A program made the position numbers and the translations under genes. From assembly GCA_964360115.1 (NCBI GenBank), contig CAYHVV010000001.1, positions 1 to 36,197 of the forward strand: 36,197 nt of DNA. Direction: 5' to 3'. This document shows positions 2,954 to 27,700 of the stretch, in pieces; positions within the stretch are counted from its first letter, which is position 1; every line of letters starts with the position of its first letter. The DNA comes from an uncultured Methanosarcinales archaeon. GTDB taxonomy: Archaea > Nanobdellota > Nanobdellia > Woesearchaeales > GW2011-AR9. Below the pieces are notes generated by a model. It was not told the origin of the DNA. It saw only the letters and a list, made by a program, of their open reading frames with translations, and did no database searches.

Positions 2954-3337
2954 CTACTTTTTGGATTTGCTGTGCTTCAGCCACTTCTCAGATAACTTGA
3001 AAATAACAAAAAAAATGGGCAATAATAATATGAAGTGTATGCCTAAAAACAAAAATACGAAGTCTTTAGGATAGCCTTCAAGAAAATATCTTACCTGCAA
3101 TAAAACACTGACACATAAAGAAACCAATAAAGACCTGGTGAATAATTTTTTATTTCTGAATAATAAATAAGCGGTATATCCAATCACAGTTCCATAGATG
3201 ATTTTATTGATGAAATAGCGCGAGGGAACAGCATACTCCGAGCTCAATCCATGTATCAAATAGTCAAATCCGGCAAAGATCAGCACTACTGCAAGAATTA
3301 CAAAAAACAAAATGGAATAATAATATGTTTTATTCAT
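2954..3337 (-). CDS. Integral membrane protein (4 TM), unknown; coupled to the cupredoxin gene
   Basis: Hydrophobic helices throughout. Its ATG overlaps the upstream gene's TGA (ATGA on the minus strand at 3334-3337). Confidence 0.55.
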   Translation of the reverse strand: MNKTYYYSILFFVILAVVLIFAGFDYLIHGLSSEYAVPSRYFINKIIYGTVIGYTAYLLFRNKKLFTRSLLVSLCVSVLLQVRYFLEGYPKDFVFLFLGIHFILLLPIFFVIFKLSEKWLKHSKSKK

Positions 3338-3708
3338 TCTACTACCACTTTACCTTTCATTGAAGGATGTATACCACAATGATAATCATAAGTGCCGGGT
3401 GTATTAAAAACATGTACATACGTATTTCCCTTTGAAATAGAATCAGAATTGATTTCATCTCCGGTATCAGAAACAATAGTATGCGGCGCAGAGTCCCTAT
3501 TTGTCCAAACAACACTTACTCCTTTAGATATAGTTAAAGTATTTGGATTAAAAGCGAAACCGTTTATCTCGATATCCATCTTAATTCCCAGATCTCCAGT
3601 AGATGGAGCAGCAGTTGGTTGTACTGGTGTTTTTTGCGCATAACAGCCGCTAACCGCTATAACTATTATCAAAAATCCAATAATAAATGTTTTTTTAATG
3701 TTAATCAT
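3334..3708 (-). CDS. Blue-copper (cupredoxin) lipoprotein
   Basis: Lipobox signal MINIKKTFIIGFLIIVIAVSGC. Copper ligands are HTIV ... YDYHCGIHPSMKGKVVV (His, Cys-x2-His-x2-Met). A GGAG RBS lies directly upstream. Confidence 0.8.
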   Translation of the reverse strand: MINIKKTFIIGFLIIVIAVSGCYAQKTPVQPTAAPSTGDLGIKMDIEINGFAFNPNTLTISKGVSVVWTNRDSAPHTIVSDTGDEINSDSISKGNTYVHVFNTPGTYDYHCGIHPSMKGKVVVE

Positions 3709-3736: not shown

Positions 3737-3813
3737 CTATTTAAATCTGACTATTCTGCTGGTCAAGAAGTGGAGAAAATTTCAAGGGAATAGTCAGGGT
3801 CTGAACGAACCGA
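3737..3813 (-). promoter_or_regulatory. Promoter-associated repeat (PAR) copy 1, ending in a TTTAAATA TATA box 28 nt upstream of the cupredoxin ATG
   Basis: Near-identical to 9434-9509 and to the reverse complement of 17655-17734. Internal inverted repeat ctgactatt (3746-3754) / aatagtcag (3788-3796). Confidence 0.7.
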
Positions 3814-3935
3814 GGCATAGCTGAGCATGCCCTCGGTCGTTGCCGTCAAGCAACCCACGAACGAAGTGACTTGGTTTGACCAAGAGCGGTCGTGAGTGAT
3901 TGACTCATTTGAATTCTTGGGCTCTGTAGAAAATC

Positions 3936-7533: not shown

Positions 7534-7604
7534 AATTCAAAACATTTTCTTTCTGCTTTTCTCTCCTTTCAACTTCCTCTTCAAAGTATTTTTAGCGCTC
7601 TCAA
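7534..7604 (-). repeat. Duplicate of the 3' end of the CBS gene (decoy C-terminus VESAKNTLKRKLKGEKSRKKMF-stop)
   Basis: 66 of 68 nt identical to 8239-8306, plus a shared aatt beyond the stop. Frame and TGA (7537-7539, minus strand) are preserved. Confidence 0.85.
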
Positions 7605-7665
7605 CTGTTTTAAGCAGGGACTAAACCAAAAGGTTTAAATAACTAGTAAGATATATCTTACTTAC

Positions 7666-7932
7666 ATGGAAATAGCATTAACAAAAATGAGTTCGAAAGG
7701 ACAGATTGTCATCCCTTCACAGCTTCGAGAAGATATGAAAGAAGGAGAACAGTTAATTATTATCAGGAACGACCACCAACTTATTCTCAAAAAAGTAAGT
7801 GGGATGGATAAGAACCTGAAAGAAGATCTTGTGTTCGCCAAACGAACAGAAGAGGCATGGGAACGCTATGAACGTGGCGAATTTAAGACTAGCACTGCTA
7901 AAGACTTCTTGAAAGATCTTGAGAGATGGTAG
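7666..7932 (+). CDS. AbrB/SpoVT-family antitoxin
   Basis: MSSKGQIVIPSQLREDMKEGEQLIIIRNDHQLILKKV is a canonical SpoVT-AbrB swapped-hairpin motif. Overlaps the toxin gene by 7 nt. Confidence 0.85.
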   Translation: MEIALTKMSSKGQIVIPSQLREDMKEGEQLIIIRNDHQLILKKVSGMDKNLKEDLVFAKRTEEAWERYERGEFKTSTAKDFLKDLERW

Positions 7933-8177
7933 TTGAGACAGTTGATAGAGATTCGTACTTCGAGAAGCTTTTTTCTAAGTTAGATTCTAACCAAAAAGAG
8001 AAAGTCAAGACGCAGATTCGTAAGATTATTGAGAATCCAGAAATAGGGAAACCGATGCGGTATGCTCGAAAGGGAACACGAGAAGTGTATCTCAAATCTT
8101 TTCGACTTTCTTATACATATATTCCAGAAGAAAACAAGGTTATATTCTTAGACTTGTACCATAAAGACGAGCAATAA
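7926..8177 (+). CDS. RelE/ParE-family toxin
   Basis: IENPEIGKPMRYARKGTREVYLKSFRLSYTYIPEENKVIFLDLYHKDE matches the RelE/ParE pattern (NP..GK....G....fRl.Y.....v.....hr). Confidence 0.8.
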   Translation: MVVETVDRDSYFEKLFSKLDSNQKEKVKTQIRKIIENPEIGKPMRYARKGTREVYLKSFRLSYTYIPEENKVIFLDLYHKDEQ

Positions 8178-8238
8178 GCGCCCTAGCTCAAATTCCGTTT
8201 TAACAACAATGAAAAGAAAAAATAATTGAAAGTAAAAT

Positions 8239-9399
8239 TCAAAACATTTTCTTTCTGCTTTTCTCTCCTTTCAACTTTCTCTTCAAAGCATTTTTAGCGC
8301 TCTCAAAGGTCTTGTGTAAAGCAGTTTCAATACGCCAGTCGTACTCGGTAACAGTAATAATTTGTCCAGGAGCATCAACACGTAAGGAAATTGAATATTT
8401 GCGTTCACGTCCGCTTTTGGTGTGATCTTTGATGTGTACTACCATAGAAAAATCATCTTGGATTTCCCGCTGCAGTTTGAAAGCTTCATTGGAAGCGATT
8501 TTCTGTACTGCTTCTTTCTGATGAGCCAATAGGCCGACATCATTCAATCCAATAAAGCGGATATTGAAATTTTCTGGAATCTCTAAACTGCTGACTAAAC
8601 GCAGTACATTCTTCAAAGTAAGCAGACCTTCAAATTTATTTCCTTCCATGACAATAGCGCTGGTCACATTGTTTTTAACCATCAGATTCACGGCTTCAGA
8701 CAAAGAAGCTTTCTTGCTGACTGTAACCATATTTTGATTAGTGCTGAAAGACTTAATTGGCAACATGGACAAGTTCGGCCGATCAGCTTCTGAACTTTTA
8801 GAACCACCTCGCATCTTATCAAACTTGGAAGAAAATTCGCGGTTAGGCGCCCAAGCCAGGTATTTCTGCAATAAATCGCGGAAACTAATTATTCCATACA
8901 ATTCTTTCCCGTCGAAAATAGGGACTTGATCTGCTCTGGCTTCATACATTAATTCTGCTGCTTTGCTGACCGGATCATCTTTTTCAAGTTTTTCTCCTTT
9001 CACCAGTTTGACATCGGCGATAGAAAATGATTTTGTTTCTGGGAGATCTGCAGCTAATTTTGCTAAATCCAACGCAGAAAGAACACCAATAATTTTTTTA
9101 TTGCTTTCCACGGGCACGAAATCGCTGTCGGCCTTGAATAAGGCATATGCTGTTTCTATGACATCGGCATGTTCATTCACTAAAGGAGCGCGATGGATAA
9201 AATTGCTTATCTTTGCTTTAGAGACATCTAACCTAAAACGCAGCAGCCCTTTTTTCTCTATGACGCCTAGATATTTTTCTTTTTTAAAAATCAAGCCGTG
9301 GCGCTCTTCAAATTTGCGCAGCTGCCCAATCATTTCTGAAACTACCTGTTCAGAATCAAACGATAGAAATTCAGATTTTATTGCTGGAGTAATTTCCAT
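8239..9399 (-). CDS. Tandem CBS-domain protein with an HPF/RaiA-like C-terminal module
   Basis: Repeated CBS-type segments such as IIGVLSALDL, LYGIISFRDLL and FEGLLTLKNVL. The C-terminal ~105 aa follow the hibernation-factor pattern (see finding). I prefer the ATG at 9399, which has a gaggtgg RBS 6 nt upstream, over the track's GTG at 9408. Confidence 0.7.
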   Translation of the reverse strand: MEITPAIKSEFLSFDSEQVVSEMIGQLRKFEERHGLIFKKEKYLGVIEKKGLLRFRLDVSKAKISNFIHRAPLVNEHADVIETAYALFKADSDFVPVESNKKIIGVLSALDLAKLAADLPETKSFSIADVKLVKGEKLEKDDPVSKAAELMYEARADQVPIFDGKELYGIISFRDLLQKYLAWAPNREFSSKFDKMRGGSKSSEADRPNLSMLPIKSFSTNQNMVTVSKKASLSEAVNLMVKNNVTSAIVMEGNKFEGLLTLKNVLRLVSSLEIPENFNIRFIGLNDVGLLAHQKEAVQKIASNEAFKLQREIQDDFSMVVHIKDHTKSGRERKYSISLRVDAPGQIITVTEYDWRIETALHKTFESAKNALKRKLKGEKSRKKMF

Positions 9400-9433
9400 G
9401 TCATCCACCTCAAGCTCTAAGAAGAACTTCCAT

Positions 9434-9509
9434 TATTTAAATCTGACTATTTTGCTGATTAAGAAGCGGAGAAAATTTCAATGGGATAGTTAGGGTTTGA
9501 ACGAACCGA
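9434..9509 (-). promoter_or_regulatory. PAR copy 2, with its TATA box 35 nt upstream of the CBS gene ATG
   Basis: tatttaaatctgactattttgctgattaagaagcggagaaaatttcaatgggatagttagggtttgaacgaaccga. It fills the whole gap between the antiporter stop (9510) and the CBS start. The distal arm of the inverted repeat is degenerate (gatagttag). Confidence 0.7.
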
Positions 9510-10712
9510 TTACATCAGCTTTTTCTTAGAATGGGTCACTAAGTACTTAAACATCATCGGGGAAATAAGCGTAGTAAATAAGGCCATCACGACTAATGCA
9601 GTGAAAATAGCCGGAGTGATTATTCCTGCAGTCAAAGCCAGAGTAGCGATACCTAATTCTACGTCTCCTTTTGGAGTTAACCCCCAGCCGATCATCATTC
9701 CTTCGCGGAAAGTTCCTTTATTCAACATAATTGCGATAGTAGTCCCTCCGACTGTACCTAACAAAGCAATAATTATGAGAATCACCACAAAAAAAGCATT
9801 AGCGCTAATAGTCCCTAAGTCCGTGTTTAAGCCGACCCAGACAAAAAATAAAGGGATCAAAAAACCAAAAGAAAGGATATGGATAGATCTGGCGATGTCA
9901 TGTTCTTCCCAATCAGGGATATGTACATCTTTGAAAATGGTTTGCCGTACAATCATGCCCGCAATCATGGCGCCAATGATAGAACCAATGCCGAACAATT
10001 CTGAAAGTGAAGCAAAAAGCAAAACAATCAATAAAGAACCGGTAAATCTGGCCGTGCTTGATTTTTCTTTGTCAAATAATTTCAAGGTGTAAGGGATAAA
10101 CCAAATTCTTGCTGCCATTACTAAAACTACAAAGAAGAATAAGCCTAATGCCAGATTAATATGTGAAACATCAGTGATAGTTAGCTGGAAGACAGAAAGC
10201 AAGATACTTACTAGGATCAATTCGATAATATCATCTACGGCGCCGGCACTGATGATGGTGTTGCCCAACTTTGATTTTACCAACTTCAATTCTTCCATCA
10301 TTCCTAATGAGATTGATTGAGCGCTGACAGAGAGAGCCACGCCAATGATAAGACTAACGATAGTGTTGAATTCAAAGACGTATTTCATGACCACAAAACC
10401 AATAACCAAAGGCAAGGTAGTATTAACAAAAGATATAGACAAGGACTTAGTGATGTTTTTCTTAAAAACGGAAAAATTAGTTTCCAATCCGACATAATAA
10501 AACAACAGAATTATCCCGAGATTGGCTAAAAAAGAAAGCACATTGGTATTCTCTTGATTAAATAAAACGGTTTTAAACACAGTTATACTTAAAATAAGGC
10601 CTGCCCCAACCTGGCCAACTACCCGAGGAATTCCCAAGAACCTTTTCAAGACTTCCGAAATAATATAAGCTAGCAAAAGAGCAACTAAAATCATTACGAA
10701 CGGAGACACCAT
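9510..10712 (-). CDS. Cation:proton antiporter (CPA2 / Kef-NapA type)
   Basis: About 11-12 TM helices. The N-terminus LGIPRVVGQVGAGLILS is typical of Na+/H+ exchanger family proteins. Confidence 0.8.
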   Translation of the reverse strand: MVSPFVMILVALLLAYIISEVLKRFLGIPRVVGQVGAGLILSITVFKTVLFNQENTNVLSFLANLGIILLFYYVGLETNFSVFKKNITKSLSISFVNTTLPLVIGFVVMKYVFEFNTIVSLIIGVALSVSAQSISLGMMEELKLVKSKLGNTIISAGAVDDIIELILVSILLSVFQLTITDVSHINLALGLFFFVVLVMAARIWFIPYTLKLFDKEKSSTARFTGSLLIVLLFASLSELFGIGSIIGAMIAGMIVRQTIFKDVHIPDWEEHDIARSIHILSFGFLIPLFFVWVGLNTDLGTISANAFFVVILIIIALLGTVGGTTIAIMLNKGTFREGMMIGWGLTPKGDVELGIATLALTAGIITPAIFTALVVMALFTTLISPMMFKYLVTHSKKKLM

Positions 10713-13640: not shown

Positions 13641-13708
13641 GATTTTCTTTAAAATTTAAGTTCATTTTACGCAAATCTTTATATAGGTAGATTTCTTCAT
13701 TCAGATTG

Positions 13709-15133
13709 ATGTCAAAAAGAGGACAAGTAACGATTTTTATAATCATAGGTTTGCTAATCCTAATTATAACTGCAGGAATAATTTATGTTTCTAATACCAC
13801 AGTTACGGAAGAGCTTAAGATTGAAGAAACTAGCCCGTTTAAGGCAGACTTTTTTGTTTCTTTTGTAGACAACTGTTTAGAAAAAAGTGTCATTGATGGG
13901 ATGTACTTAGTTTTTTCACAGGGAGGTTATTATGAATTTACTCCGGAACCTGAACTGTTTGATCAGGTAGATGAACAAATAATTTCATTTCCCCCTAGTT
14001 TAGGAATTAATGTTTTTGCAGTAGAAGGTGAGAAAGAAGTAGAAAGTGAAAAAGAGGCTTTGCAAGTTCCAGTGTATTTCCAAAATACTAAAGCTAATCT
14101 GCCTGCCATTACTAGCATAGAAAGAGAAGTAGGAAAAGCTTCAAGAAGTTTTTTTCTTTCCTGCATAAATGGTTTTGAAAGTTTTAAAAAAGAAAATTAT
14201 AATATAGATGCCGGCAGCCCTGAGATTAAAGTTGCTTTTGCTGAAAAAATGTTAGTAGAGTTAAATTACCCCTTAAAAATAACTGGCGGCAGTAAAATCG
14301 CTGAACTTGAAACCTTTTCTACCGCCATTAACTTTAATTTTAAAGATAAATATGAAGTGATTAAAGAATATTTAAAAAAACAGGAAGAAGAACCAAATTA
14401 TTTTTTAATGGGTGAACTCTCTTCTTATGCTTATGAAAAAGATTTTGGTTTCGGATTTAAGCAGTTTGGCGATTCCGGAGCAGAAGTGTTAGTTGATTTT
14501 TCTTATGATGAAGAATTAAAACCGGAACCTCTGATTTACAGTTTCATTCTTTATTTTAATTGGACTGAACCAGTAGAGGAAGCCGAGTTATCTGGAGAAG
14601 AAGATGCAATCATCAATTTGGAAAGTATCCCTGCCTGGAACATCGATCAACCGGGCATTCATACTTACCAAGTGAAAGCTCTGGGAGAAGGTCTTACTTT
14701 CCATACTGATCCAAGAAGTCTGTCCATCGATCCTAAAACTGGACTAGTGACGATAGACACGAATGAATTCCCCAACGATGAATATTTATATTATGTTTTA
14801 GTTAGTGACCAATACGGACACGAAACTGTCGGGCCGATGTTCGTTAATGTAAATGTTAATGGCGGAACTTTGCCGATTATCAAGAAGATAGCCAAGCAGA
14901 CAGCAAAAATAGGAGAAGAATTTAATTATAAAATCGAAGTATTAAATGCCGGAAAAAACGTCGAGAATATTTTATCGTTCACTACTGATTCCTACTTGTT
15001 CGACCTGGATAAAAAAACGGGAGAGATCAAATTTATTCCTCAGCCAGAAGATAAAGGTCTTCATTCTGTCCGGGTAGATGTAGAGAACGAATTCGGGAAG
15101 ACTTGGCAGAGATGGGAATTGGAAATAAAATGA
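13709..15133 (+). CDS. Pilin-like (class III signal peptide) surface protein with C-terminal Ig-like domains, paralog of 17758-18774
   Basis: MSKRGQ|VTIFIIIGLLILIITAGIIYV has a short basic n-region, Gly-Gln, then a 20-aa hydrophobic stretch. The first 24 nt from the ATG are identical to those of 17758. Shared core FVDNCLEKSVIDGMYLVFSQGGYY. C-terminal Ig-like module LPIIKKIAKQTAKIGEEFNYKIEV. I prefer the ATG at 13709 over the track's TTG at 13706. Confidence 0.7.
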   Translation: MSKRGQVTIFIIIGLLILIITAGIIYVSNTTVTEELKIEETSPFKADFFVSFVDNCLEKSVIDGMYLVFSQGGYYEFTPEPELFDQVDEQIISFPPSLGINVFAVEGEKEVESEKEALQVPVYFQNTKANLPAITSIEREVGKASRSFFLSCINGFESFKKENYNIDAGSPEIKVAFAEKMLVELNYPLKITGGSKIAELETFSTAINFNFKDKYEVIKEYLKKQEEEPNYFLMGELSSYAYEKDFGFGFKQFGDSGAEVLVDFSYDEELKPEPLIYSFILYFNWTEPVEEAELSGEEDAIINLESIPAWNIDQPGIHTYQVKALGEGLTFHTDPRSLSIDPKTGLVTIDTNEFPNDEYLYYVLVSDQYGHETVGPMFVNVNVNGGTLPIIKKIAKQTAKIGEEFNYKIEVLNAGKNVENILSFTTDSYLFDLDKKTGEIKFIPQPEDKGLHSVRVDVENEFGKTWQRWELEIK

Positions 15134-17487
15134 TCAGCAGACAAAATAAACAAAATATTGGCACTAAAGATACCAAGATAAATTATTTTGTGTCTCTAAT
15201 GGTCTTGGTCTTAATGTGCACCTTTATTATTCTAGGTGTCTCCGCAGAAGATAATATCAATAATATTGATTGGAATAATCCGGAACAATTCAATGCTAAT
15301 TTTGAAAATGATCCCGTAGCTGCATTTTCTAACAATCCTGAAATGGTCTGGAACAAAATAGAAAATAATCCTCTCCTGCTTGCAGATAATGAACAAGTCA
15401 TGATCGCGGCATTCAACAATAATCAGGATAGGTTCTGGAGTCTTGTAAGTGTAAAAGGCAGCGATGTAATGAAAAACCAACCATTATGGGATTTCGCATT
15501 TAAGCAGGACCGGTTAAAAGCTGCAGGGGTAATAGAGAATAATCCGCACATCTTAGATGACTCTGTCCTTCTAGAAAAATTTGACTTAGAAATTTCTTCT
15601 CAGGAACTAAGAAACGGCAAAACCGGAGTAGAGATTATCAATGAAAATCCTAAAGCAAAGAAAACCTGGCTTGAAAAAAAATATGACTTGTTTACGGAAG
15701 ATATCATTGAAACAGGGGGAAAAATCAAGAACGCTGACATTCTCAAATACGATGGAAATAAAATCACTACCGGCGGCGCTGGCGGAGGAAAATTTACAGT
15801 TAAGGATGTCAAAGGAGCGAAAATCTTAACGGACGGTTCTTTGGAATTCAAAAATGCGGTAATCAAAGCTACCAAAAGTTTTTCTTTAAAAACAGATGAA
15901 TACGGAAATGATTATTATGGGATGGAAGCCGGAGAAGTTTATCTGGATGAGACGGTTAAGACATTCTCGTTAAAAATAAAAGATGGAAAAGTGTTCTCTT
16001 CAGGAAAAGGCTTGATAACTTATGATTGTTCTGATTGCGCTTTTGAAAAAGGGACAAGAATGGGCCAGTTTATCAAGTCAGAAGAGACTGGAGATCTGAT
16101 TACCGGTAAGTTTAAGCGCATAGGTCACTATCAGTTAGATTATACTTATCAAGCTGCAGTTGCCATGGAAGTAGATGGCGGAATATTTCAACAAGACGGT
16201 TCTAATCCGGAAGAGATGATCATTCTCGGAAAAACTAAATTGGTTAAGAAAGAAATAATTTTCGGCGATCCAAATAAAAATTATAAAACAACCCTGCCTG
16301 GAGACGGAACGATTATTAATATCGAAGGACCTAATACTGTTTATTATACCGAAAAAAAGAGCCGTGATGCTGCAACATTTTGTCCGAAAGATTTTGCTTG
16401 CATAGTTAATGTTCCCGGCCAGGAATACGGGGGAGCGTATCAGGAAAGATTAGCTTTCTTAAACGTGCAGGAAAATGATAAGATTTCTGTGAAAACTCCG
16501 GTTTATTATAATCGGGTTGAAGTTCTTGACCAAGTAGGCGGAGAAGTTACTTTTGCTTCCGTTAATAAAAGAAGCGGAACGGTCTTAGGAGAAATAAAAT
16601 CTGTTGCCGGAGAGAAACCAAAATTGGTTCGAGGCAGGCTGGAAGAAATAAAATCCGGAAGGTTTGATGTATTGGATAGTACGGATCCATATGAACCGCC
16701 GTTACTGCATCATTGGTCATCAAAAAAATTCCAGAAAGATCAGATTTATTTTATGAATAAGCGGGATCATTTTGCAACCTGCACTTACGGTGTTGATTGT
16801 GAAGAAGTGTTTGCAAAGGAATTCGGAAAAGTAATCGTACCAAAAGACAGAACTAAAAAGATTTCAACGACCATAATCGTTTCCGGCGATAACGCTAACA
16901 CTCCCTTAAGCATGTTAAGTTACTGCCAAAAAGAAGGGTGTTACATCGTCAACAGCAGAGATTCACCGCCGACAACTAAAAGCAGCAAGCTGGTTGTAAC
17001 CGGGCATCATAATGCCGGTTCTGATTATGTCTGGAGAGATCCTCCTGAAGTATTTAAAAAACATAACCCTATAGATAAACTTTACTTCAGCCCGGTTGAA
17101 GGAGGTTCACCTTTCGATTCGCTTCCTACGTCCAGCGCGGATGCGCAAAATCCGGTTGATTACGTTGCGTTCAGCGCCTGCAACACCGCAAACTCTTTTG
17201 ATTCACCAGATTTCGGGATTCTTCAGAAAAAATATCCTGACTTAAAAATCGTCCAGGGATGGAAAAATAAAGCGCCATTGCATGAAGCTATAAGTGATCT
17301 GCCTACAGGTATAGAAGAGATGGAAAAGCTGGCTCAGGGAAGCATAGTTAAAAACAAATACGGGGACAAAATAGGCGGTGAAAAATCTTGGTACATCAAA
17401 CAGGCCGATGGGACTTGGAAATGGACTAATGGCCGGGTAAATCCTCAACCCTTGGGTTCATCAAGTGAATTTTATGAAAATGTTTAG
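15130..17487 (+). CDS. Large secreted protein (785 aa): N-terminal region related to the giant protein, C-terminal caspase-fold-like module
   Basis: The ATG at 15130 overlaps the upstream TGA (ATGA), the same junction as at 18771. Signal peptide FVSLMVLVLMCTFIILGVSA|ED. The track's 15103 start would add 9 aa upstream of it. Confidence 0.7.
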   Translation: MISRQNKQNIGTKDTKINYFVSLMVLVLMCTFIILGVSAEDNINNIDWNNPEQFNANFENDPVAAFSNNPEMVWNKIENNPLLLADNEQVMIAAFNNNQDRFWSLVSVKGSDVMKNQPLWDFAFKQDRLKAAGVIENNPHILDDSVLLEKFDLEISSQELRNGKTGVEIINENPKAKKTWLEKKYDLFTEDIIETGGKIKNADILKYDGNKITTGGAGGGKFTVKDVKGAKILTDGSLEFKNAVIKATKSFSLKTDEYGNDYYGMEAGEVYLDETVKTFSLKIKDGKVFSSGKGLITYDCSDCAFEKGTRMGQFIKSEETGDLITGKFKRIGHYQLDYTYQAAVAMEVDGGIFQQDGSNPEEMIILGKTKLVKKEIIFGDPNKNYKTTLPGDGTIINIEGPNTVYYTEKKSRDAATFCPKDFACIVNVPGQEYGGAYQERLAFLNVQENDKISVKTPVYYNRVEVLDQVGGEVTFASVNKRSGTVLGEIKSVAGEKPKLVRGRLEEIKSGRFDVLDSTDPYEPPLLHHWSSKKFQKDQIYFMNKRDHFATCTYGVDCEEVFAKEFGKVIVPKDRTKKISTTIIVSGDNANTPLSMLSYCQKEGCYIVNSRDSPPTTKSSKLVVTGHHNAGSDYVWRDPPEVFKKHNPIDKLYFSPVEGGSPFDSLPTSSADAQNPVDYVAFSACNTANSFDSPDFGILQKKYPDLKIVQGWKNKAPLHEAISDLPTGIEEMEKLAQGSIVKNKYGDKIGGEKSWYIKQADGTWKWTNGRVNPQPLGSSSEFYENV
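16850..17300 (+). other. Candidate clan-CD (caspase/CHAT/CPD-like) cysteine protease module
   Basis: KLVVTGHHNAG (His codons at 17005-17010) is followed 58 residues later by DYVAFSACNTAN (Cys codon at 17179-17181). The His-then-Cys order, hydrophobic strands before each residue and small residues after each match the caspase-hemoglobinase fold pattern. Confidence 0.4.
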
Positions 17488-17498
17488 GAAGAGATTTA

Positions 17499-17532
17499 TA
17501 GAGAAGTTTGAATAATTCATAAAACTTCTCTA
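17499..17532 (+). terminator. Perfect 11-bp hairpin after the 785-aa gene (possible terminator or processing site)
   Basis: tagagaagttt (17499-17509) pairs with aaacttctcta (17522-17532) across a 12-nt loop. No strong T-run follows. Confidence 0.35.
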
Positions 17533-17654
17533 AGAGACTGTGAAATGGCGGAATTTTCCCCTTAAATAAAATTTACTATTATCAAAAATTCCTTTTTTCA
17601 AAGTTCTCTATGGATAAATTCTTAGATTAGATCAGGCCAAAATGGGGTTAACCC

Positions 17655-17734
17655 TCGGGTCGTTCGTTCAGACCCTGACTATTCCCTTGACATTTTCTCC
17701 GCTTCTTAACCAGCAAAATAGTCAGATTTAAATA
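17655..17734 (+). promoter_or_regulatory. PAR copy 3, with its TATA box 23 nt upstream of the ATG of the giant-gene operon
   Basis: ctcgggtcgttcgttcagaccctgactattcccttgacattttctccgcttcttaaccagcaaaatagtcagatttaaata. Inverted repeat 17675-17683 / 17717-17725. There is no SD before the ATG at 17758, suggesting a leaderless transcript. Confidence 0.75.
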
Positions 17735-17757
17735 CATTTTAATCTTATTTCCTTCTG

Positions 17758-18774
17758 ATGTCAAAAAGAGGACAAGTAACAATCTTTTTAGTAGTGGGTA
17801 TAGTCATTTTACTCTTAGCAGCGTTGTTCTTTTACCTCTTCGGCCAGATGAAAGAAGCGCCGTTGCAAGTGGAAGCAAAGGAAACCGGAGAAGCGCCCAG
17901 TACGCGAGGAGCTTTACAAATATATGTTGAAAATTGTATCGAAAAAACCATTGATCCAGCAACATATTTACTAGCACTGCAGGGCGGGATAATTTATCCG
18001 GATGAAAGTAACAAAATTCTGCTAACTGATTATGGCGTTGTTAATTATGCCTGGTTGAATGGTGCGCAAGGAATTTCCCGCGCTAAAATGGAAGAAGATC
18101 TTGCAGCATATTTGGAAGAATATATTCCTTCGTGTTTAGGTAATTTTGAAACATTTGTCACTCAAAACATTTTAGTTGAATCGGATTTTAATAATGTTCA
18201 AGCAAAGATTTCTATTAAGGAAAATACCATCAATGCAAACTTAGATCTGCCGCTTAAAGTAAATCTAGCTGATGGAGATAAATTGGAATTAGATCATTTT
18301 TCAGCAATGGTGCGTAGCAGCTTAGGTAAAATGCTTACTTCTATTGAAAAATTAAAGTTTCCAATTATAACCCCTTCCGATTTGGTTAACCTTCCGTACC
18401 AATCAACGATATTCCCCTTTGATGAAGCAGTTACCATTTACTCACTAACTGAAGAGAATCAAGAAACTCCGTTATCATTTATGTTTGCAGTTCGTAATGA
18501 TCTTCCCGAGAATAAAGCTCCTTCATTGCATTATATTGCTGACAAGACTTTTCGCGTAGGAGACGTATGGAAAGAAGTATTGACTGCAGAAGACCCTACC
18601 AATGACTTGTTAGAATTTTCTTCTGATTCCAGTTTATTTCCCATTCAAAAAGATGGAACCATTGACGTACAGATAACTCAAGCAGGAGAATTTGAAGTTA
18701 CTTTTAGCGTTAATGATCATCAGGCCGGGGAAGATGAACAACTAGTTACAGTTACAGTGGTGAATAAAGAATGA
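17758..18774 (+). CDS. Pilin-like (class III signal peptide) surface protein, paralog of 13709-15133
   Basis: MSKRGQ|VTIFLVVGIVILLLAALFFYL. Shared core YVENCIEKTIDPATYLLALQGGIIY. C-terminal Ig-like module APSLHYIADKTFRVGDVWKEVLTAEDPTNDLLEFSSDS. Confidence 0.7.
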   Translation: MSKRGQVTIFLVVGIVILLLAALFFYLFGQMKEAPLQVEAKETGEAPSTRGALQIYVENCIEKTIDPATYLLALQGGIIYPDESNKILLTDYGVVNYAWLNGAQGISRAKMEEDLAAYLEEYIPSCLGNFETFVTQNILVESDFNNVQAKISIKENTINANLDLPLKVNLADGDKLELDHFSAMVRSSLGKMLTSIEKLKFPIITPSDLVNLPYQSTIFPFDEAVTIYSLTEENQETPLSFMFAVRNDLPENKAPSLHYIADKTFRVGDVWKEVLTAEDPTNDLLEFSSDSSLFPIQKDGTIDVQITQAGEFEVTFSVNDHQAGEDEQLVTVTVVNKE

Positions 18775-21700
18775 AACCAGTAACTAGAAAAACTATTGTT
18801 ATGGGGTGTGTTTTTCTCTTCCTAGCGAGTCTTTTTGCTGTTGCCCAGGAGTTTCCAGAAACGAATAACCCGCAGGGGCAATCTCCTTATGATCAATTTT
18901 CCAGCAATCCGAATTTATGGACCACGGATAATTTCAATAAGCTCAGTCCAGCAGATCAAGGACAATTTTTAGCAACTAATTACCGCGCAGATTTGGCGCT
19001 GGAATATTACAAAAATCAAAATAACGTCGGCTTGAATAAGATAGTAGATTTAAAATATTTTGCGGATAAAAATAACTTAGGGAAAAATCCAGCTGCTGAT
19101 GATAAATTTTATTCGAGCACTTATACCACTGCAACGCTGACGAGCTTGCGTGATTTCCTGCAGACAGGACTGGAACAGAAAGAGGCTGCTGCACAATATT
19201 TCACTCAAAAGTTCAATACTCCTTATACCTTTGAAGAAGTAGATGAAGATTTTCAATATGATGCTCAAGCAGGAACATTGACCAATGGTAAGAAAACTAT
19301 CAGTTTAAGTGAGTTCAAAGGTGATTCAGCTATCCAAGGGATTATTTCTATCGCAGACGGGTTTAAAATTATCCGGAAAGAAGAACAAGAAACACAGGAA
19401 ATTTCCGTGCAGGGTGATGGAGAGAGAAAAATTCAATATGATGCCCAGAAAGGAAATTTATTATTCAGAGACACACAGGGAAAAGAACAAAGCTTTGATA
19501 TCACTGCTGCAGAACCAGTTCATCTCGATTTTTATCAGGATGGAACTTTAGAGATAGAAGGGCCTGTTTCGGGAACAGTTAATCTTGATAACGAACATAA
19601 GTTCGCAGAATTCAGAAACAGACAGGGAAAATTAGTTATCTATTTCAACGGCGACTTTGAATCAAGAGATGCATTAATAAAAACAGCAAAACTCTACCTC
19701 AATGGACGATTTGAATATAATAAAGAAAAAAACAAAGTAGATGCTTACGATGTGATGAGCAATGATAGAAAAACTATCATTGTTGACAAAGATTCACGCG
19801 TAGGTGCAAAGACACAGGGACAGATTAAAGGAAAAAGTACTTTAGAGATATATCTTTCTAAAGTTTCCGAACACTCAGAATATTTTGTCAAACCTGGTGC
19901 AGCTGAAGAACAGCCGACCGTACAAGAAGTCATTGACAACTTACAGAAGGTTAGACCACCACAAGGAGACGTTGGAAATAACGCAGAAGTATTCATCAGG
20001 AAAAATGCTGAAACTGGAAAAACAATTATTACTTCAAAAGGAAAAGTAGAGATTGGTTTTTATGATGTTGTGAGCGGAAGCATTTCGCGTTCTGAAACTG
20101 AGCCGCACTTTATAGGTGTAAACGGAATTTCTGAGTTTGATTATTTAGGTGCGCCACAGAAACAAATAAACATTCGAGGAAAAGCAGTGTACTCGGATGA
20201 ACAGTACAGCCAGATTGATACACAACAAAATGGCGCTTCTCTCAAGATAATAAAGAATGATTTTGATGATGTTATCCATTCAGGATGTTTTGATTGTGAA
20301 ACTGGATCAACTGCGCTAAGCATAGGCAAACAAGTTGCGACGGCATTACAACAAGGAGATACGTTTACTGAACCTCAGTTTAAAACAATTAGCATCTCTG
20401 CAACAGTTAAAGATAAAGGCCTCGAATATGATTGGGATACGTTTCTTAACAATATGGGTTCTCTTGCAGGCTCAAAAACAGAGGGACAACAAATAATTTT
20501 AGGAAAAAATTTACTATTGAAAAGTATAACCTGTGAAGGTACAAAACAGTGTGATTTCATGCTGGCCAGAGATCAGCAATCAGGAGTAACTTCTGCTTTT
20601 TATGAAGTATACGACCCAGAGACAAATAAAGCAGGTAGAAGAGTTACTATTCCAACTAATATCGGTGAAACCATGGGTAAAGTGACCCTACTCACTTCTA
20701 CTGAGAATTTACAAAAACTACAACAGATTCAAACCTTAATTGAACAACGAAGATATGGGGAAGTTTCAAATTTATTAAAAAATGAACCGTTTGAAGAAGA
20801 TCCTGCTTTGCGCCAGCATCTTCTGAAAACTACGGGAATTGATCTACAACAATTAAATAATCCAGAATACACTCAAAAGCTCAATGAGATAAATAATTAT
20901 TATTCTGATGCACACACAAAAATAAAGACATTACGGGATAGTTATGGAATTAATCTAGATGAAAAAGGTGTGCCTGTATCGACAGAAGATCAGCAAAAAC
21001 TGAACGAAATCTTAAACAAAAAACGCAGTGGGAATGAAATAGCCGCATTTGACTTATACAGCGGAGCAAGAGTTGATTTAGCCCGAGCAGAGAATGAGCA
21101 AGTAGAAGCAATGCATCAATCCTGCGCTGGAAATGCGTATTGCCCCGTAGGAGATGAAGATGTCAAAGCCGCTCAGCAGAAAGTAATTAATGAAGTTCTA
21201 AGAAGAGAAAAATCTCCAGAGGGAATCCAATGGCGGCAAAACTTCGAACTGCAGAAGGAACAAAAAGAACAGCAGAAAGAAGTAGAACTATTAGCCGATA
21301 AATTAGCTGATGCTCAGAAATTAGGTAAAAAAAGAGATGCTACTGAACGTACCTTGACACGTGATCAAGCAGTTCTTGCTAAAACTATTCAAGATCTAAA
21401 TGAGCAGGAAGCAAAAGTACTGAGACTTGAACAAGAACGGAAAGAGAAGGAAAAAAGTATTCAGTTCAGAGATGTTTTGAATGTTGTATTTACGCTAGGC
21501 GAAGGAATTGAACAAGATTTAGATTTGCAGAGAAGTGCTGAAGAATTAGCAAAGAAAGAACTTACCACGCTGGAACTACAGGAATTTAGTTTACAAACTA
21601 GGATTAAAAACGGAAAGGAAGGCCTTAAAAAAATAAATGAAGATATCAACGATCTCACTCTCAATTTCAAAGAACCCACCTCTAAATTAGCATTATTAAG

Positions 21701-24700
21701 CGCCTCTGGCGATGATGAAACCGTCGGCATGATGATACATAATTCTGACTTGCCTTCGGCTAAGAAGGATGAATTATACCAAACTTACCTTGGTTCTGAT
21801 GTAAGCAAGCGCCTTAAAGAAATTAGCGCGGATCAGTCTGTTTCGAATTATGACGAAAAACAAAAACAAATGCTTGACATTATCGGCACCGGAAAAATGA
21901 CACTTAAACGAGCGCAAAATTATGCTGAGCAATACGGTGATATCGGCGGATCAAAAGTAGTTTTAGATCATGTTAAAGCTACTAGACCTGATTTGGTTGA
22001 TACACCAGAATGGAGAACGGCGCAAAATGCTTATGATGCGGCAGTCGATAACCAAATAGCAGAGTTACGACAGGTTGCAGAACAAAATCTTCGGGAAAAA
22101 ATGAAACTCAGTGATGGAACAGAGTCCAGCATTTTTGGTGATAAAAATTCTATTGCTGATTGGACTTTATCTAAGTTGGGTGCCGCGGCTGAAAGCGTGG
22201 GTTCAGGAATACGTTCTGCGAGTTTTAATGCTGTTGCCGGAACACTCGCAGTCGCGGGAGGAGCTTCTTATTTAGTCGGCGCGGAAGAAACAGGAACCAA
22301 TTTATTAGATACAGCGACGGCATTGCATACTTTTGATGATGTGAAGAAGCAGCAAGCAAATGCAGAATTAAGATTACTGGATCAGCAAATAAAATCCTAC
22401 GACAAAGTGCAGGAAATAATTGCAAATGCTCGTCTAAGTGGGAAAGAACCAGATACTGCACTTATCCAGAATGCATTTAGAACCCAAGCACCAATTACTA
22501 ATTTAGCAAAACAAATGGAAGGAAAGGAATTAACGGTAGATGACCAAGCGCAAGCAGCATTGTATAATGTTGAACAATCCGCATTGGTTGCTGGCGGAGA
22601 TGAATTAGTAAAGAATCAATATATCGCCATTCGAGAAGAGTTTGCTGGTAAAAGCGAGGTTGCAGATATAGCAAAAGAAAGAGTACTTAAAGCGGAACAA
22701 CGTGCAGAAGGTTCCTTCTTAACTAACGAACAACTTGGCCTTTATGGAGATGCGTTGATTGATGTTTCTGTTGATGTAACAAATATCATTCCCGGGGTTG
22801 TTTTTGTCAAAGCCGGCAAAGCAGTTGCAAAGTTTGCTGAAGTTACTAAGATTGCTGGAGCTGCCTCTAAAATAGGTCATGCGATAGATGTTGTTAAAGA
22901 TGCAGGTAAATTATTAACTGTATCAAAAGATGCGCGATTGGCTTTGAAAGCAGCAAAGGCAGAATTGTATGCGGCGCAAGTAACTAAAGGGTTAACTGCT
23001 GTAGAAAGAACTGCAGAGATTGCTCGAGCAGAACAGAAAATAAACTTGGCTAGGCAAGCTGTTGAAGGAGAATATCGTGCCAGTAAGGTTGGTCGAGTAA
23101 CAAATGTATTATCTACGCCTGTCTCTTCTGATCTTAGAGCCATAGAAAAATTAAAGTTGGCGACTCAAGATGAACAGTTCAAAGCGGCGCAACAGTTACA
23201 GGCCGCCAGAACAGCAGAAGAAGTGCAAACCGCTCAGGAGGCATATAAAGTTGCTACACAAAGAGTCAGTGATATTGAAAAAACAAAAGAAGCATATTCT
23301 TTAGCGGGTTCATATACAGGTGGTGTAACTTGGTTAGGAAAAGAACGCGCCGTTGGTCCTGGTGCAAAGAAAGCACAACAAGCTCTTGATGAATTTCAGC
23401 AAGCCAGAGAAGCGTATCATGTAGAAAAGATTGCTTTTGGCGCAGATAAAGTATCAGCTGAAACTGTCGAGAATATTATCAAGACTGCAAAAGCAGCAGA
23501 AGAGGCATCATTTGAGAACAGGCTTTCCAATACCATTAAGGGCGCAATCGGTGCGCAGCGAGTTGAAAGAAATGTAGAAAAACTCAAAGCAGCTAAAGTT
23601 GGACTTTCATTTACTGATGATGGTAAACTTGTTGCAGAAGGGTTACAAACCGGCTCTGAAGAAGCCAAATTGGTTGAACAAACTAATAAATTGCTGGATG
23701 AAGATACGGTCATGCGGCATCTTGTTGGCGAAGATGCTAAACGTATCGCAACTCCAGAAGATATCCCGCAACCGCCGCGGAAATTATCCGAACAAGAATT
23801 TGATGAGTTAGATTTACTTGACAAAGAACTTGAAGCGCGAGGAGCTACCTATCATCTTAATGATCAAGACCAAGTAGAGATAAGTATTAATGATGTTGTA
23901 ACTGAAAATGTTGAAGATTTAGAATTATTAAAACAAAAAGCGCAGAGAGCACAACAATTATTTGATGAGGCCGATAAGGAAGATTTGATCAGGCAAACAC
24001 GAGCAAGGATAAATGCAGAAAATGTACTTTCTGATAATGATTTACAGGATGTTGCTGCTCAAGTAAAGAAAGATCTAACTGCTAAAACAAAAGGAGAAGT
24101 TGACGCTGCAGTTATCCCAGAAGTTGCTGGTGAAAAAGCTGCAGAACTGCCTAAACCTCTTGCTGCTAGAGAAACTAGAATAGCAACAGGTGATGATATC
24201 CCGAGACCGGAAGCGATTGAAGAAGCAATTGATTCCAGAACAGCAGGAACCTATTCCATACTCAAGACAGTTCAGCAAGAAGGAAAAGCGCCAACAGTTC
24301 GCGGGTTAGACCATCTCCCAGCGGATATAACTGCAGAAGAAAACGCTCAGCGAGTCTTGGCAAGTGTACCTGAATCAGGCACTACTGTGAGATTAGAAAC
24401 TCTCAATGGTAATATCGAAGAAGGCAAAGTTCTTGCAGCAAATGATAATGGCATAGTCTTAGAGCAAGCAGGAAGACAAAAAACTATTCCCGCTGATAAA
24501 GTAGATACAGTCACGGTTACTGAAAAAGCACCGATAGAAAAGCAAGGAGTTTCTGATGTGGTCGAACCCTGCACTCTCGCTGCCGCTGCGATATACGGAT
24601 TGGCTCCCTGTAATCCTAGTGAAGCTACTAAACTGCCTGCAGAAATTTCCGGCGAGAGAGAAATTGCAGAAAAAGCACCTTCCGTTTCTGAAGAAGAGCA

Positions 24701-27700
24701 ATTTGTACCCGAAGTATCCACCGTCGTAGAAAGACCAGCAAATCTGCGAAGTGAAGGAGCAACTGTCGTTCAACTTCCTGGACGTTCTATAGCAGCAGAG
24801 TCTGTTGAAGTTCCAGCTCAATTAGATATAACTCCTGCCACTATAGATGATATAGACATAATTGTTAATGATCAGATACCACGTACAAAATTAGCTGAGA
24901 GTGAAGCAGCAGCCCTGACTGCAAATAGAGAATATTTTATCGGTCGGGGTGGAGAAGCAATAGTAATAACTGATCCAGAAAATCCAAATTTTGTATATAA
25001 AATAAAACACACCACTAGTCCTGAAGTTGCAGAAACAGCAAATTCTTTCCCTGATGCTAGAACATATTTAGATGCTCTTGGTGAGCATGGCGCAAAAGTA
25101 GATTGGGCAAATACTAATACTATGCGCATCGAGAATTTAAAAGCTTCTGGACACCAACAATTAGGAGACGCGATATTTAACAGCTTGTCACCGGAACAAA
25201 GAGCATTGTATGTAGCGGATGGAACTACTGCTGCGCAAAGACGGATTTTACGAGAACAAGCATTTAGACAAATGACTGAGGAAGAATTTCAAGCGTTTAA
25301 TCAGGCCTTTGATGAGTTTGCTGAAACAGCAACCAAACAGGGAATAAAAATTGGCGATACAGGAATAGATAATATTTGGGTAGGACCGGAAGGATTTACC
25401 GACGGAGTAAAGTTTAAAATTTCTGATGCTGGGGTTGCTCATCAAGTTACTGATCGCAATGCTCTGCGGCAATTTTATCAGCGCAGGAAAGCAGAATTAA
25501 TATCTGGTGACTCTGGCTATTTAGTCACGGGCGAAGATGCGATAGATCTGTATGAAGCTCGCGGATTAATCACTAAAGAAGAAGTGATTAAACTACGTAA
25601 TGAATTACCTGTTCCGGAAACGTTGCTTAAAGAAGTTGAAGAGATAGAATTGCCTTCTTGTTCTATCGGCGGTTCTTTTGTCGGACAAGCTGCAGCAGCG
25701 CCTTGTTTGCCAACTGGCGCGCCAAAAACAATAGATGATTTAGTTGAAGGAGAAAAATTCAGAGTGCGTTCAAAAAGCGGCAATTCCTATGCCGGCAGTT
25801 ATCTTCATACTGAAGGGGGTTTATTAAATTTCGAAACTGGAGAGGAGACAAAAAGATTCTTTGGATTACTGGGCACTAAAAAAGAAACAGGCACGTTGCG
25901 TGTTGAGCTGTTAGATCAAAGCAGTATTATCCGAGAAGGCGATCAAATAAGGATAACTTCCAATAGCGGTATTCCTTACGTCGGCAGATATGCCGGTGAA
26001 GATGCAGAATTCTTCCGGATTAAGTATCCAAATGGAGACACTCTGCGTTTTAAAAAATCTGACTTTAATCTGGATACTATCATCGGAGAAGGAGACGCAG
26101 TCACGCTCAGGAGCAAAAGCGGCAATAGTTATTCCGGACAGTATGTTTCGGAAGCTGACGGATACATCGTTCTCAGAGACGAAAGTGGAAATGCTTTCCG
26201 CTTGAGAAGCGAGATGGTGGATAAAACTTCCATCAAGACACTTGGAATGGAAGAACAATCCATCAAAAATAAAAATAAAGCTTTATTTGCAGATAAGGAA
26301 GAATTTCCTTCACGCCAAAGTAAAGATGTACATGCAAAAGATTTACCTTTTGAAAATGAACCTGCCCCGCGTAGAGTAATATATTCTCTTGAAGACAGGA
26401 TAATAGCAGAAGAACAAGGCCTTATTTTTGAAAATGTACCCTCTTCTAAACTTCCGCCAGGAACCTACACTTATGTTATATTAGAAGACGGGTCAATGGT
26501 GTTTGGAAAAGTAAGCAGTAATTTGGAATTTGGAGTTAAGCATGTCCATCTGGCTAACGGAAGGCCGGTCAAAGTTGCCGGAGAAGTAGCAATTGACGGA
26601 ACTGGAAAATATGTGTTTAATTTACGCAGCGGAACTTTTACTTACCCCCTACTTGACAGTAAATTTGAAAAGTTTAAACATCTGGGAAATGTGAAGGCAC
26701 GGGAAGAAGTTGCTAAATTTGAAAGAACACTGCAAAGAAATATGGACGAGTCTTTCAGTAATTATTTTGGCAGGAAAGGAGAGTTCACAAAAGATCCGGT
26801 TTTACCTAATCAGCCCTCACCGCTGGAAGAATTAGTAAACATTTGCGTAAGAGGCGCAGAGCTTAATATTCTCTCCTGCCAAGCTCCAGATATAAAAGTT
26901 TTAGTTGAGCAGAGAAGAGCAGCGATGGTTTCAGATGCAGTCAATCCTTGCAACATTGCTGCTGCTGCGATTCAGGGATTAGCTCCTTGTGTAACTAGTA
27001 CGGCTGAAATAATGCCTGAGGAACCTGCATTCGTAATTGAAACATCTGGTGTTGTAGAAAGGCCAGTAGAACTTCGTAATGAATTGCCTCTAACCGAAGA
27101 GGTAGTTCCTTCTTCAGAAAAGATTATTTCTGAATGGAGAATGAAAGCAAGAGAAGCACTTAATTCTCAAACGCCAATTGAAATCGGTGAAACTAAAGTT
27201 GTTTTTACTAGAACAGTTGATGACGAAGTTGAAAAGATTGAAGGAGTTCTAACCGCGAAGTATGATGCTAATAATTATTTTTCAATGCAGATAGTCGATT
27301 CTGAAACAGGAGATATTGTTGCTACTCACTACTACCATGTTCGTGGAAAAGAAATTTCAATATTAGAAACGAAGGTTAATCCTAACTATCAAGGAGCAGG
27401 AATGAATCAACAGATGTTCCAGTATATGTCTGATTTACATCCAGAAGCGGAAGTTATGGATACGCTAGTAGCCGGAACTAATTTAGAGGTGTATAAAGCA
27501 TCATTGCAGAAGGGATTAAGTCCTCTTGATGCAATAAAACAAACTCCTGCTTACAAAATAAGAAAAAATGCCGGTTGGGGAGAAATTGATCTTAAACAGT
27601 CAGTACTGCCCAAGTTAGAAGAACTCGAAGAAAGATCGCTTACTTTGATTTCTAAGAGGGAAAATCCGACGGGTGTTCTTCCTCCAGAATTTAAACGCAA

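Follow-up and report, generated by a model that had tools for sequence, protein, structure and literature searches.

It was in Haloquadratum that palindrome-associated transposable elements (PATEs) were defined, with a connection to transposons of the IS605 type (PMC3119063); the traits that mark them are the absence of inverted terminal repeats and of target duplications, near-terminal palindromes, a targeting sequence of 4-6 bp and core deletions (PMC3119063; PMC10055086). PATE-like elements of Geobacillus are mobilised in trans by TnpA (PMC10055086), and no IS family is more widespread in archaea than IS200/IS605 (PMC13343696). Putative mobile promoters (PMPs) are formally stretches of 50 nt or more that lie upstream of non-paralogous genes and share at least 80% identity (PMC3575422). 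We analyzed a repeat in a 36,197-nt stretch of archaeal DNA (the window) and concluded that it probably belongs to a family of non-autonomous transposable elements of Woesearchaeota-type DPANN archaea that is PATE-like; PATEs are non-autonomous and derive from IS200/IS605. The family had not been described before and is of a known kind; the twist is that its target equals the TATA box. Like the PATEs of haloarchaea and their Geobacillus counterparts, the element is too short for a transposase, has neither terminal inverted repeats nor a target duplication, and keeps a short fixed flank at one end. Palindromes that resemble each other stand near both termini in long forms, but the window copies lack one of them. 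The element also shares with PATEs heterogeneous interiors, "terminal-only" core-deleted versions, small hairpin repeats inserted in palindromes and presence/absence polymorphism between close strains. Unlike PATEs, it occurs at very low copy number in DPANN hosts, and its target is the TATA box, so that copies are promoter-proximal and oriented. A further difference is that no same-ended IS200/IS605, longer element with the same ends or cognate transposase (Y1 TnpA, TnpB or other) turned up in the window or among ~190 kb of loci from relatives, and no transposase domain was recorded among ~0.58 Mb of loci.

The window is that of a DPANN-type archaeon that encodes ribosomal protein L15e and archease at 33-43% GC, and proteins identical to its own are labelled "Nanoarchaeota archaeon" or come from Hainich groundwater samples. 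We compared it with two sister genomes, CAYRMP (GCA_964425545.1; loci L018/L060 for the CBS site, with L060 also covering the cupredoxin site, and L021 for the pilin site) and JAIYRH (GCA_053531235.1; L059 for the CBS and cupredoxin sites and L058 for the pilin site). Housekeeping proteins (CBS, archease, L15e, CorA and exchanger) are 95-98% identical among the three and 70-89% identical in outgroups. Among the MAG records L003, L007, L012, L013, L018, L021 and L028, several binchicken MAGs are titled "uncultured Methanosarcinales archaeon," labels that look wrong given that gene content and 92-98% identity to the window place these MAGs with Woesearchaeota/Nanoarchaeota relatives.

The earlier note had reported three near-identical copies of a ~75-nt repeat in front of three unlinked transcription units. 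Counted together with the adjoining TATA box, we found these copies at 3738-3813 (minus), 9434-9509 (minus) and ~17644-17734 (plus), with edges that are sharp on both sides apart from the approximate 5' edge of copy 3, and with pairwise identities of 89% (copies 1 and 2), 87% (copies 1 and 3, a 94-nt repeat) and 92% (copies 2 and 3). The features are collected in the table below. All three copies end in the invariant 18-mer AATAGTCAGATTTAAATA, which has exactly three exact occurrences in the window; even when up to 3 mismatches were tolerated, shuffled sequences averaged 0.20 matches, and none of 100 reached three. The box TTTAAATA ends 29 nt before the cupredoxin ATG (3708), 23 nt before that of the pilin-like gene (17758) and 34 nt before that of the CBS gene (9399; 25 nt if translation starts at the GTG at 9408), which bears out the shared 3' end that had been placed before the three start codons. 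The inverted repeat was likewise confirmed, with both arms intact in copy 1 (CTGACTATTC, 3788-3797, with GAATAGTCAG, 3747-3756) and copy 3 (CTGACTATT, 17675-17683, with AATAGTCAG, 17717-17725) and a degenerate 5' arm in copy 2 (CTAACTATC, 9485-9493). The length of ~75 nt suits the short forms but not copy 1, which continues for ~90 nt beyond the stretch first noted, up to a 5' module (AGTCAATCACTCACGACC, 3888-3905), and consists of a 5' hairpin domain, the linker GTTCGTTCAGACC and stem H3, whose arms are those of the inverted repeat. Copy 1 was recovered by nhmmer at E = 1e-26, and its RNA fold (3738-3910) reaches -55.2 kcal/mol with a z-score of -4.69; the short 67-nt forms alone fold weakly as DNA (z between -1 and -2). 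Copy 2 immediately follows the stop codon (9510-9512) of the gene for the Na+/H+ exchanger. No fourth copy was found in the window by nhmmer, which also misses the tentative remnant at the foot of the table, a sequence with likeness only to the TATA box and the ~10 nt of the element that precede it. A separate 74-nt repeat of 78% identity (33791-33864 and 34726-34799) lies upstream of two neighbouring minus-strand genes, and one of its copies contains AGCCAGATTTATCTA, a 3-mismatch match to the 3' end of the element.

Table. Element copies, native TATA boxes and downstream genes in the window.
Feature	Coordinates	Strand	Details
Copy 1	3747-3905	minus	159-nt full-length long form, AGTCAATCACTC to GAATAGTCAG
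Native TATA box of the cupredoxin operon	3738-3745	minus	TTTAAATA; same ATTTAAATAgaataaattatt...ggagATG, element-free, in L059 and L060
Cupredoxin operon	3334-3708 and 2954-3337	minus	Cupredoxin identified by Pfam
Copy 2	9443-9509	minus	5'-truncated, decayed; nhmmer E = 1.7e-12
Native TATA box of the CBS gene	9434-9441	minus	TTTAAATA at equal ATG distance in element-free L049, L051 and L053
CBS-domain gene	8239-9399/9408	minus	
Copy 3	17644-17725	plus	5'-truncated, 5' edge approximate; nhmmer 17644-17735, E = 5.2e-20
Native TATA box of the pilin-like/giant-gene operon	17727-17734	plus	Same box and leader, element-free, in L058
Pilin-like/giant-gene operon	17758-18774 and 18771-30290	plus	Giant gene of 3839 aa
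Decayed terminal remnant (tentative)	1654-1672	plus	AAATAGCAGATTTTAAATA; upstream of DUF7670 gene (1693-2064)

Upstream repeats are commonly interpreted either as signs of shared regulation or as portable promoters, and the comparison of empty with filled sites shows a different logic. For each of the three downstream proteins, we located the contigs that carry homologs and compared the promoter sites. At the cupredoxin site, the window is filled: ...aattcaaatg is followed by the element (AGTCAATC...159 nt...AATAGTCAG) and then by ATTTAAATAgaataaattatt...ggagATG, with ATTTAAATAgaataaatt after the element. The site is empty both in CAYRMP (L060: ...aatcaaatgATTTAAATAgaataaatt; with longer flanks, ...aatcaaatgATTTAAATAgaataaattatt...) and in JAIYRH (L059: ...attcgaattATTTAAATAgaataaatt; with longer flanks, ...attcgaattATTTAAATAgaataaattatt...). 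Both flanks of these empty sites are as in the window, nothing is duplicated and the sole ambiguity is one A, which fixes the ends of copy 1 to within 1 nt. The pilin site is empty in JAIYRH (L058: ...atatgtaacATTTAAATAcattttaatcctatttccctctgATG), where the same box and leader are present, and filled in CAYRMP (L021). The CBS site is filled in the window, in CAYRMP (L018/L060) and in JAIYRH (L059), and it is empty in L049, L051 and L053, which are more distant relatives (82-88% protein identity). The 3' junction is identical at the pilin and CBS sites. The empty orthologs keep ATTTAAATA and the leader, with unchanged spacing to the start codon, and both the TATA box and the leader are therefore each gene's own; since the filled sites hold one box rather than two, the inserted segment ends ...GTCAG(A), before the box. 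These orthologous sites show the repeat to be inserted directly against the upstream edge of ATTTAAAT, although at any single site the relatives may instead have undergone a precise deletion. We also considered that the TATA box might be a target duplication, which was rejected given that the 5' flanks are merely AT-rich and that the 5' flank at the cupredoxin site corresponds to its ortholog in the empty site and does not duplicate the box.

We scanned a genome collection with the 18-mer and a metagenome collection with an independent 5' piece, GTTCRGAYCCTGACTATTCC, and the two scans returned the same modular element from about a dozen Woesearchaeota/Nanoarchaeota-type MAGs and groundwater contigs; outside such relatives, both collections gave only chance matches in bacteria. 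Copy number is low (1-3 exact 18-mer copies per genome), and BLAST and nhmmer found none beyond the known copies in 0.58 Mb of examined loci. The complete unit runs from AGTCAATCACTC to GGAATAGTCAG over ~70-200 nt, with L003 (56 nt) and L028 (~200 nt) as the extremes. The conserved 5' end reads (A)GTCAATCACTC. Helix P1 encloses hairpin P2 (e.g., CCACCAGTC-AATA-GACTGGTGG) and another GC-rich stretch, the linker is invariant in the family (GTTCGTTCRGACC), and the invariant 11-bp stem H3 (CTGACTATTCC/GGAATAGTCAG) encloses hairpins P4 and P5 (CCACTGGTG-AATA-CACCAGTGG). GC-rich hairpins stand near both ends of the element: P2 and P5 are near-terminal 9-bp hairpins with related stems and the same AATA loop, and both are present in the long forms L014, L028 and L033. 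P5 is missing from all three window copies, L012 and L028 have two extra hairpins nested in the P5 loop, and L003 is a "terminal-only" version, as if the stretch separating the two similar hairpins had been deleted. The long forms have strong folds, with z-scores of -4.7 (copy 1), -6.7 and -8.2. The structure was defined on a 7-sequence alignment in which 95% of cells are paired, and compensatory double changes were observed at 9 base pairs, compared to 4.8 +/- 1.4 in shuffles and 0-3 in slid controls. This covariation lies in P1, P2, P4 and nested hairpin A; H3, which is invariant in sequence, has none.

Several other identities for the repeat were considered. The window contains no tRNA or tmRNA, and an origin from either type was rejected on that ground. 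A viral origin was also rejected, given that phage and plasmid records gave no element match by blastn and two scans of viral_contigs gave chance matches or none. C/D-box and H/ACA sRNAs were dropped on motif inspection, with both the C box and the ACA box absent, as were the ORB boxes of replication origins. The ends carry no RYYYAAC/GTTRRRY core sites of the integron attC kind, and the copies are dispersed on both strands upstream of genes and form no arrays. An invertible promoter switch was dropped since the TATA box lies outside the inverted repeat.

The position before start codons carries over to the related genomes, in which most independent copies are followed by a same-strand ORF that starts ~22-41 nt after TTTAAATA. 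A tRNA gene follows the 18-mer in L015, with 23 nt from the end of the 18-mer to the first base of the gene. An archaeal TATA box lies ~23-27 nt upstream of the transcription start. Both spacings fit this geometry and suggest that the box is positioned like a working archaeal TATA box; it had been assigned to the 3' edge of the repeat, but it belongs to the gene and not to the element. The genes downstream elsewhere encode a MinD/ParA ATPase, SRP54, threonyl-tRNA synthetase (ThrRS), a tRNA, a matrixin-like peptidase, an endonuclease/phosphatase-family protein, a pectate-lyase-like surface protein and a wHTH membrane protein; together with the cupredoxin, CBS protein and pilin-like protein of the window, this set has no functional theme. 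The L034 copy has no gene downstream, and in L033 and L042 the next gene is 63 and 129 nt away. With or without a gene following, the flank after GTCAG is (A)TTTAA in every distinct copy but L033, which has TTTTAAC; the flanks of L034 and L042 read TTTAAGAA and TTTAAACAC. Like an archaeal BRE/TATA core promoter, the filled sites have a purine-rich CAGA in the BRE position, comparable to the relatives' native promoters (GGCAGA, GCAAGA), and TTTAAATA ends 23-34 nt before the start codon. Unlike such a promoter, they have AATAGTCAG, brought by the element, upstream of the TATA box. The other promoters of the window have ordinary TATA boxes without AATAGTCAG upstream, and AATAGTCAG is thus specific to the element rather than a general promoter consensus.

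These observations can be accommodated by a PATE-like element that would insert beside the palindromic motif ATTTAAAT or, viewed on the opposite strand, 3' of TTTAAAT. IS200/IS605 elements sit 3' of their own target motif, and the element is like them in this respect. In these AT-rich archaea, the target motif would coincide with the TATA-box consensus, so that insertions would land at the upstream edge of promoters. Given that ATTTAAAT is palindromic, either strand should be usable for insertion; an insertion on the opposite strand would part the TATA box from the transcription start and be lost, and selection of this kind would account for the fixed orientation. After insertion, the gene's own TATA box and leader would keep driving transcription, while the last ~10 nt of the element (AATAGTCAGA) would take the BRE/upstream position and be the sole part that stays conserved. 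Through this replacement the element may affect expression. The element would look like a portable promoter given that it docks at the gene's own TATA box, always in the same orientation. Direct comparison of the ends agrees with this class: the 5' end AGTCAATCACTC and the 3' end GGAATAGTCAG are not reverse complements, and the partner of the 3' end, CTGACTATTCC, lies internally. The filled and empty cupredoxin sites differ by no target-site duplication (<=1-nt (A) ambiguity), and the insertion adjoins a short specific oligonucleotide at one end (on the opposite strand, TTAAA(T) and then the element). A classical MITE was rejected given that terminal inverted repeats and target-site duplication, both present in classical MITEs, Correia elements and ERIC, are absent. 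The element is nonetheless modular and hairpin-rich, like the promoter-bearing bacterial repeats Correia, ERIC and BOX. We hypothesize that IS200/IS605-type single-strand transposition, by a transposase supplied in trans, mobilises the element. Counting against the PATE-like reading, besides the low copy number and the failure to find a transposase in the loci searched, are the hairpin-to-end distances of ~9 nt and ~19 nt (target-5' strand), which are the reverse of those of IS608, the absence of P5 from the window copies even though copy 1 looks like the youngest insertion, and the lack of covariation in H3.

Two readings had been put forward in the earlier note, namely a small mobile portable-promoter element and a shared operator or enhancer that places the three operons in one regulon. 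In the former, the element would bring its own BRE and TATA box to whatever gene follows, and the identical 18-mer, TATA box included, does precede unrelated genes in several genomes. With 87-92% identity over 73-94 nt before the cupredoxin, CBS and pilin-like genes, the repeat falls within the formal PMP definition (PMC3575422), and it resembles PMPs in being a near-identical stretch of >50 nt before non-homologous genes, within and between genomes (Matus-Garcia, Nijveen and van Passel 2012; PMC3575422). The gene-less copies still have a TATA-like flank as well, possibly a decayed box borne by the element. This reading is contradicted at the three loci, where the empty sites already have ATTTAAATA at the same distance from the start codon and the filled sites hold one box, not two; unlike a PMP, the element does not deliver the TATA box. 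We therefore consider a portable promoter quite improbable and retain from the proposal that the element is mobile, as filled and empty orthologous sites attest, with the promoter being its target and not its cargo. The regulon proposal, under which a transcription factor such as a wHTH protein of the window would bind the inverted repeat, could draw on the invariance of the H3 arms and AATAGTCAGA, which show no covariation and would suit protein recognition, and on their location directly upstream of the TATA box. The comparisons do not support it: close relatives have element-free orthologous promoters, the spacing of the arms ranges from 9 to >100 nt, which is at odds with a dimeric DNA-binding site, the 5' arm is decayed in older copies (copy 2, L018 and L059) and the downstream genes across genomes are functionally unrelated. 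An operator now seems hardly probable.

A structured non-coding RNA deserves somewhat more weight, although we regard it as unlikely. The hairpin unit could be transcribed, for example into an omega-RNA-like guide for a TnpB/IscB-type nuclease or into some other small RNA; its conservation would in that case stem from a function of the RNA, adjacency to promoters would be incidental, and mobility would be compatible with this account. The very low fold z-scores, the covariation of four helices and a between-genome identity of the element that far exceeds that of the surrounding DNA speak for it, and PATEs often encode omega RNAs (PMC10055086). Speaking against it, there is no consistent promoter or terminator upstream (the upstream gene is divergent in L014 and L034), G-U wobble pairs favour neither strand, and window copies 2 and 3 are without most of the structure. 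In Rfam 15, searched with the window and the long forms at gathering and permissive thresholds, no family matched at the gathering level, and the best sub-threshold hits were chance-level microRNA and snoRNA models. Recombination or gene conversion, in which upstream segments are copied between promoters with the TATA region as microhomology and without transposition, could explain why both CAYRMP copies share a TTAATACCTGCG insert and the three window copies share the P5-less variant, sharing that suggests exchange within a genome, and copy 2 lies at an inversion breakpoint. The 5' junctions lack homology between sites, however, and the 5' end (GTCAATCACTC) is sharply conserved across distant genomes before unrelated flanks, which argues for a defined element with two ends and makes conversion alone a very doubtful explanation. 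We also considered a bolder extension, to which we attach a low probability comparable to that of the RNA reading: the element could be a transposon that targets the TATA box itself, a promoter-rewiring parasite of reduced DPANN genomes that swaps the BRE/upstream region for its own conserved end, with the covarying two-domain fold perhaps serving as an omega-RNA- or bridge-RNA-like guide that sends an RNA-guided nuclease or recombinase to TATA-adjacent sites.

Under the preferred reading of a PATE-like insertion, the three sites also form a series. The insertions are nested, with that at the CBS gene in all three sister genomes, that at the pilin site in the window and CAYRMP and that at the cupredoxin operon in the window only, and this nesting fits the relatedness of the genomes. 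Judged by this distribution, the CBS promoter was the first in the lineage to be hit, the pilin/giant-operon promoter the second and the cupredoxin promoter the latest. The older a copy, the further its decay has gone. At the cupredoxin site, the copy retains its full length and an intact stem H3; the CBS copies each have two mismatches in the 5' arm of H3, and their 3' arm (AATAGTCAG), next to the box, is untouched, suggesting that selection keeps only the part that is now in the BRE position. The CBS copy of JAIYRH retains the 5' end module, which that of the window lacks. Both CAYRMP copies (L018/L060, 3850-3868; L021, 200-215) have TTAATACCTGCG before AAAATAGTCAG, and the window and JAIYRH copies do not, which points to concerted evolution between the CAYRMP copies or to insertions that recurred at one and the same TATA edge. 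In L056 and L049, the genes run PLD(-), exchanger(-) ... giant gene, 239-aa gene(+), CBS(+); relative to L056, L049 and L051, the segment that extends from the Na+/H+ exchanger to the 239-aa gene is inverted in the window and in CAYRMP (window 8239-10712 and 31043-32462). Copy 2 is truncated precisely at one junction of this inversion, and the other junction (31762-31803) is element-free. The inversion is not ascribed to recombination between copies 2 and 3, given that only the junction at copy 2 carries the element.

The neighbourhood of the copies contains further repeats and variable loci. A MazE-like antitoxin gene (7666-7932) and a ParE-like toxin gene (7926-8177) form a cassette (7612-8235) between 78-nt direct repeats that are 94% identical (7534-7611 and 8236-8313), and the sister L018/L060 contig (92% identical, syntenic) is without the cassette and one repeat copy. 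A second family of GC-rich, hairpin-containing intergenic repeats (170-345 and 1420-1617, plus; 81-95% identity) lies upstream of an HTH-nucleotidyltransferase gene and the DUF7670 gene. Between a 794-aa gene and copy 3, a non-coding stretch (17497-17625) is conserved in L034 (8681-8830), where it lies downstream of an element copy, and in L021 (1-60); it contains the hairpin GAGAAGTTTGAATAATTCATAAAACTTCTC and the run ...TTTTTTCAAAGTTCTCTA and may be a terminator or a small RNA. The pilin-like protein (17758-18774) is 57-61% identical to those of L021 and L058, with a nearly identical promoter and leader, which compared to 95-98% in housekeeping proteins indicates a surface locus that is hypervariable. 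A paralogous gene pair with a similar N-terminus is also present in the window (13706-17487).

In summary, the small genomes of DPANN archaea are generally regarded as poor in mobile elements, and the three sites described here provide a concrete, datable series of insertions in uncultivated DPANN archaea. The association of the element with promoters and its fixed orientation would follow from the choice of target plus selection. One copy lies at an inversion breakpoint and another in front of the hypervariable pilin/giant surface-protein operon, with consequences for the evolution of promoters and for rearrangement in DPANN archaea. Should a partner transposase come to light, the family would serve as a natural system for studying the effects of BRE replacement on archaeal promoter strength.
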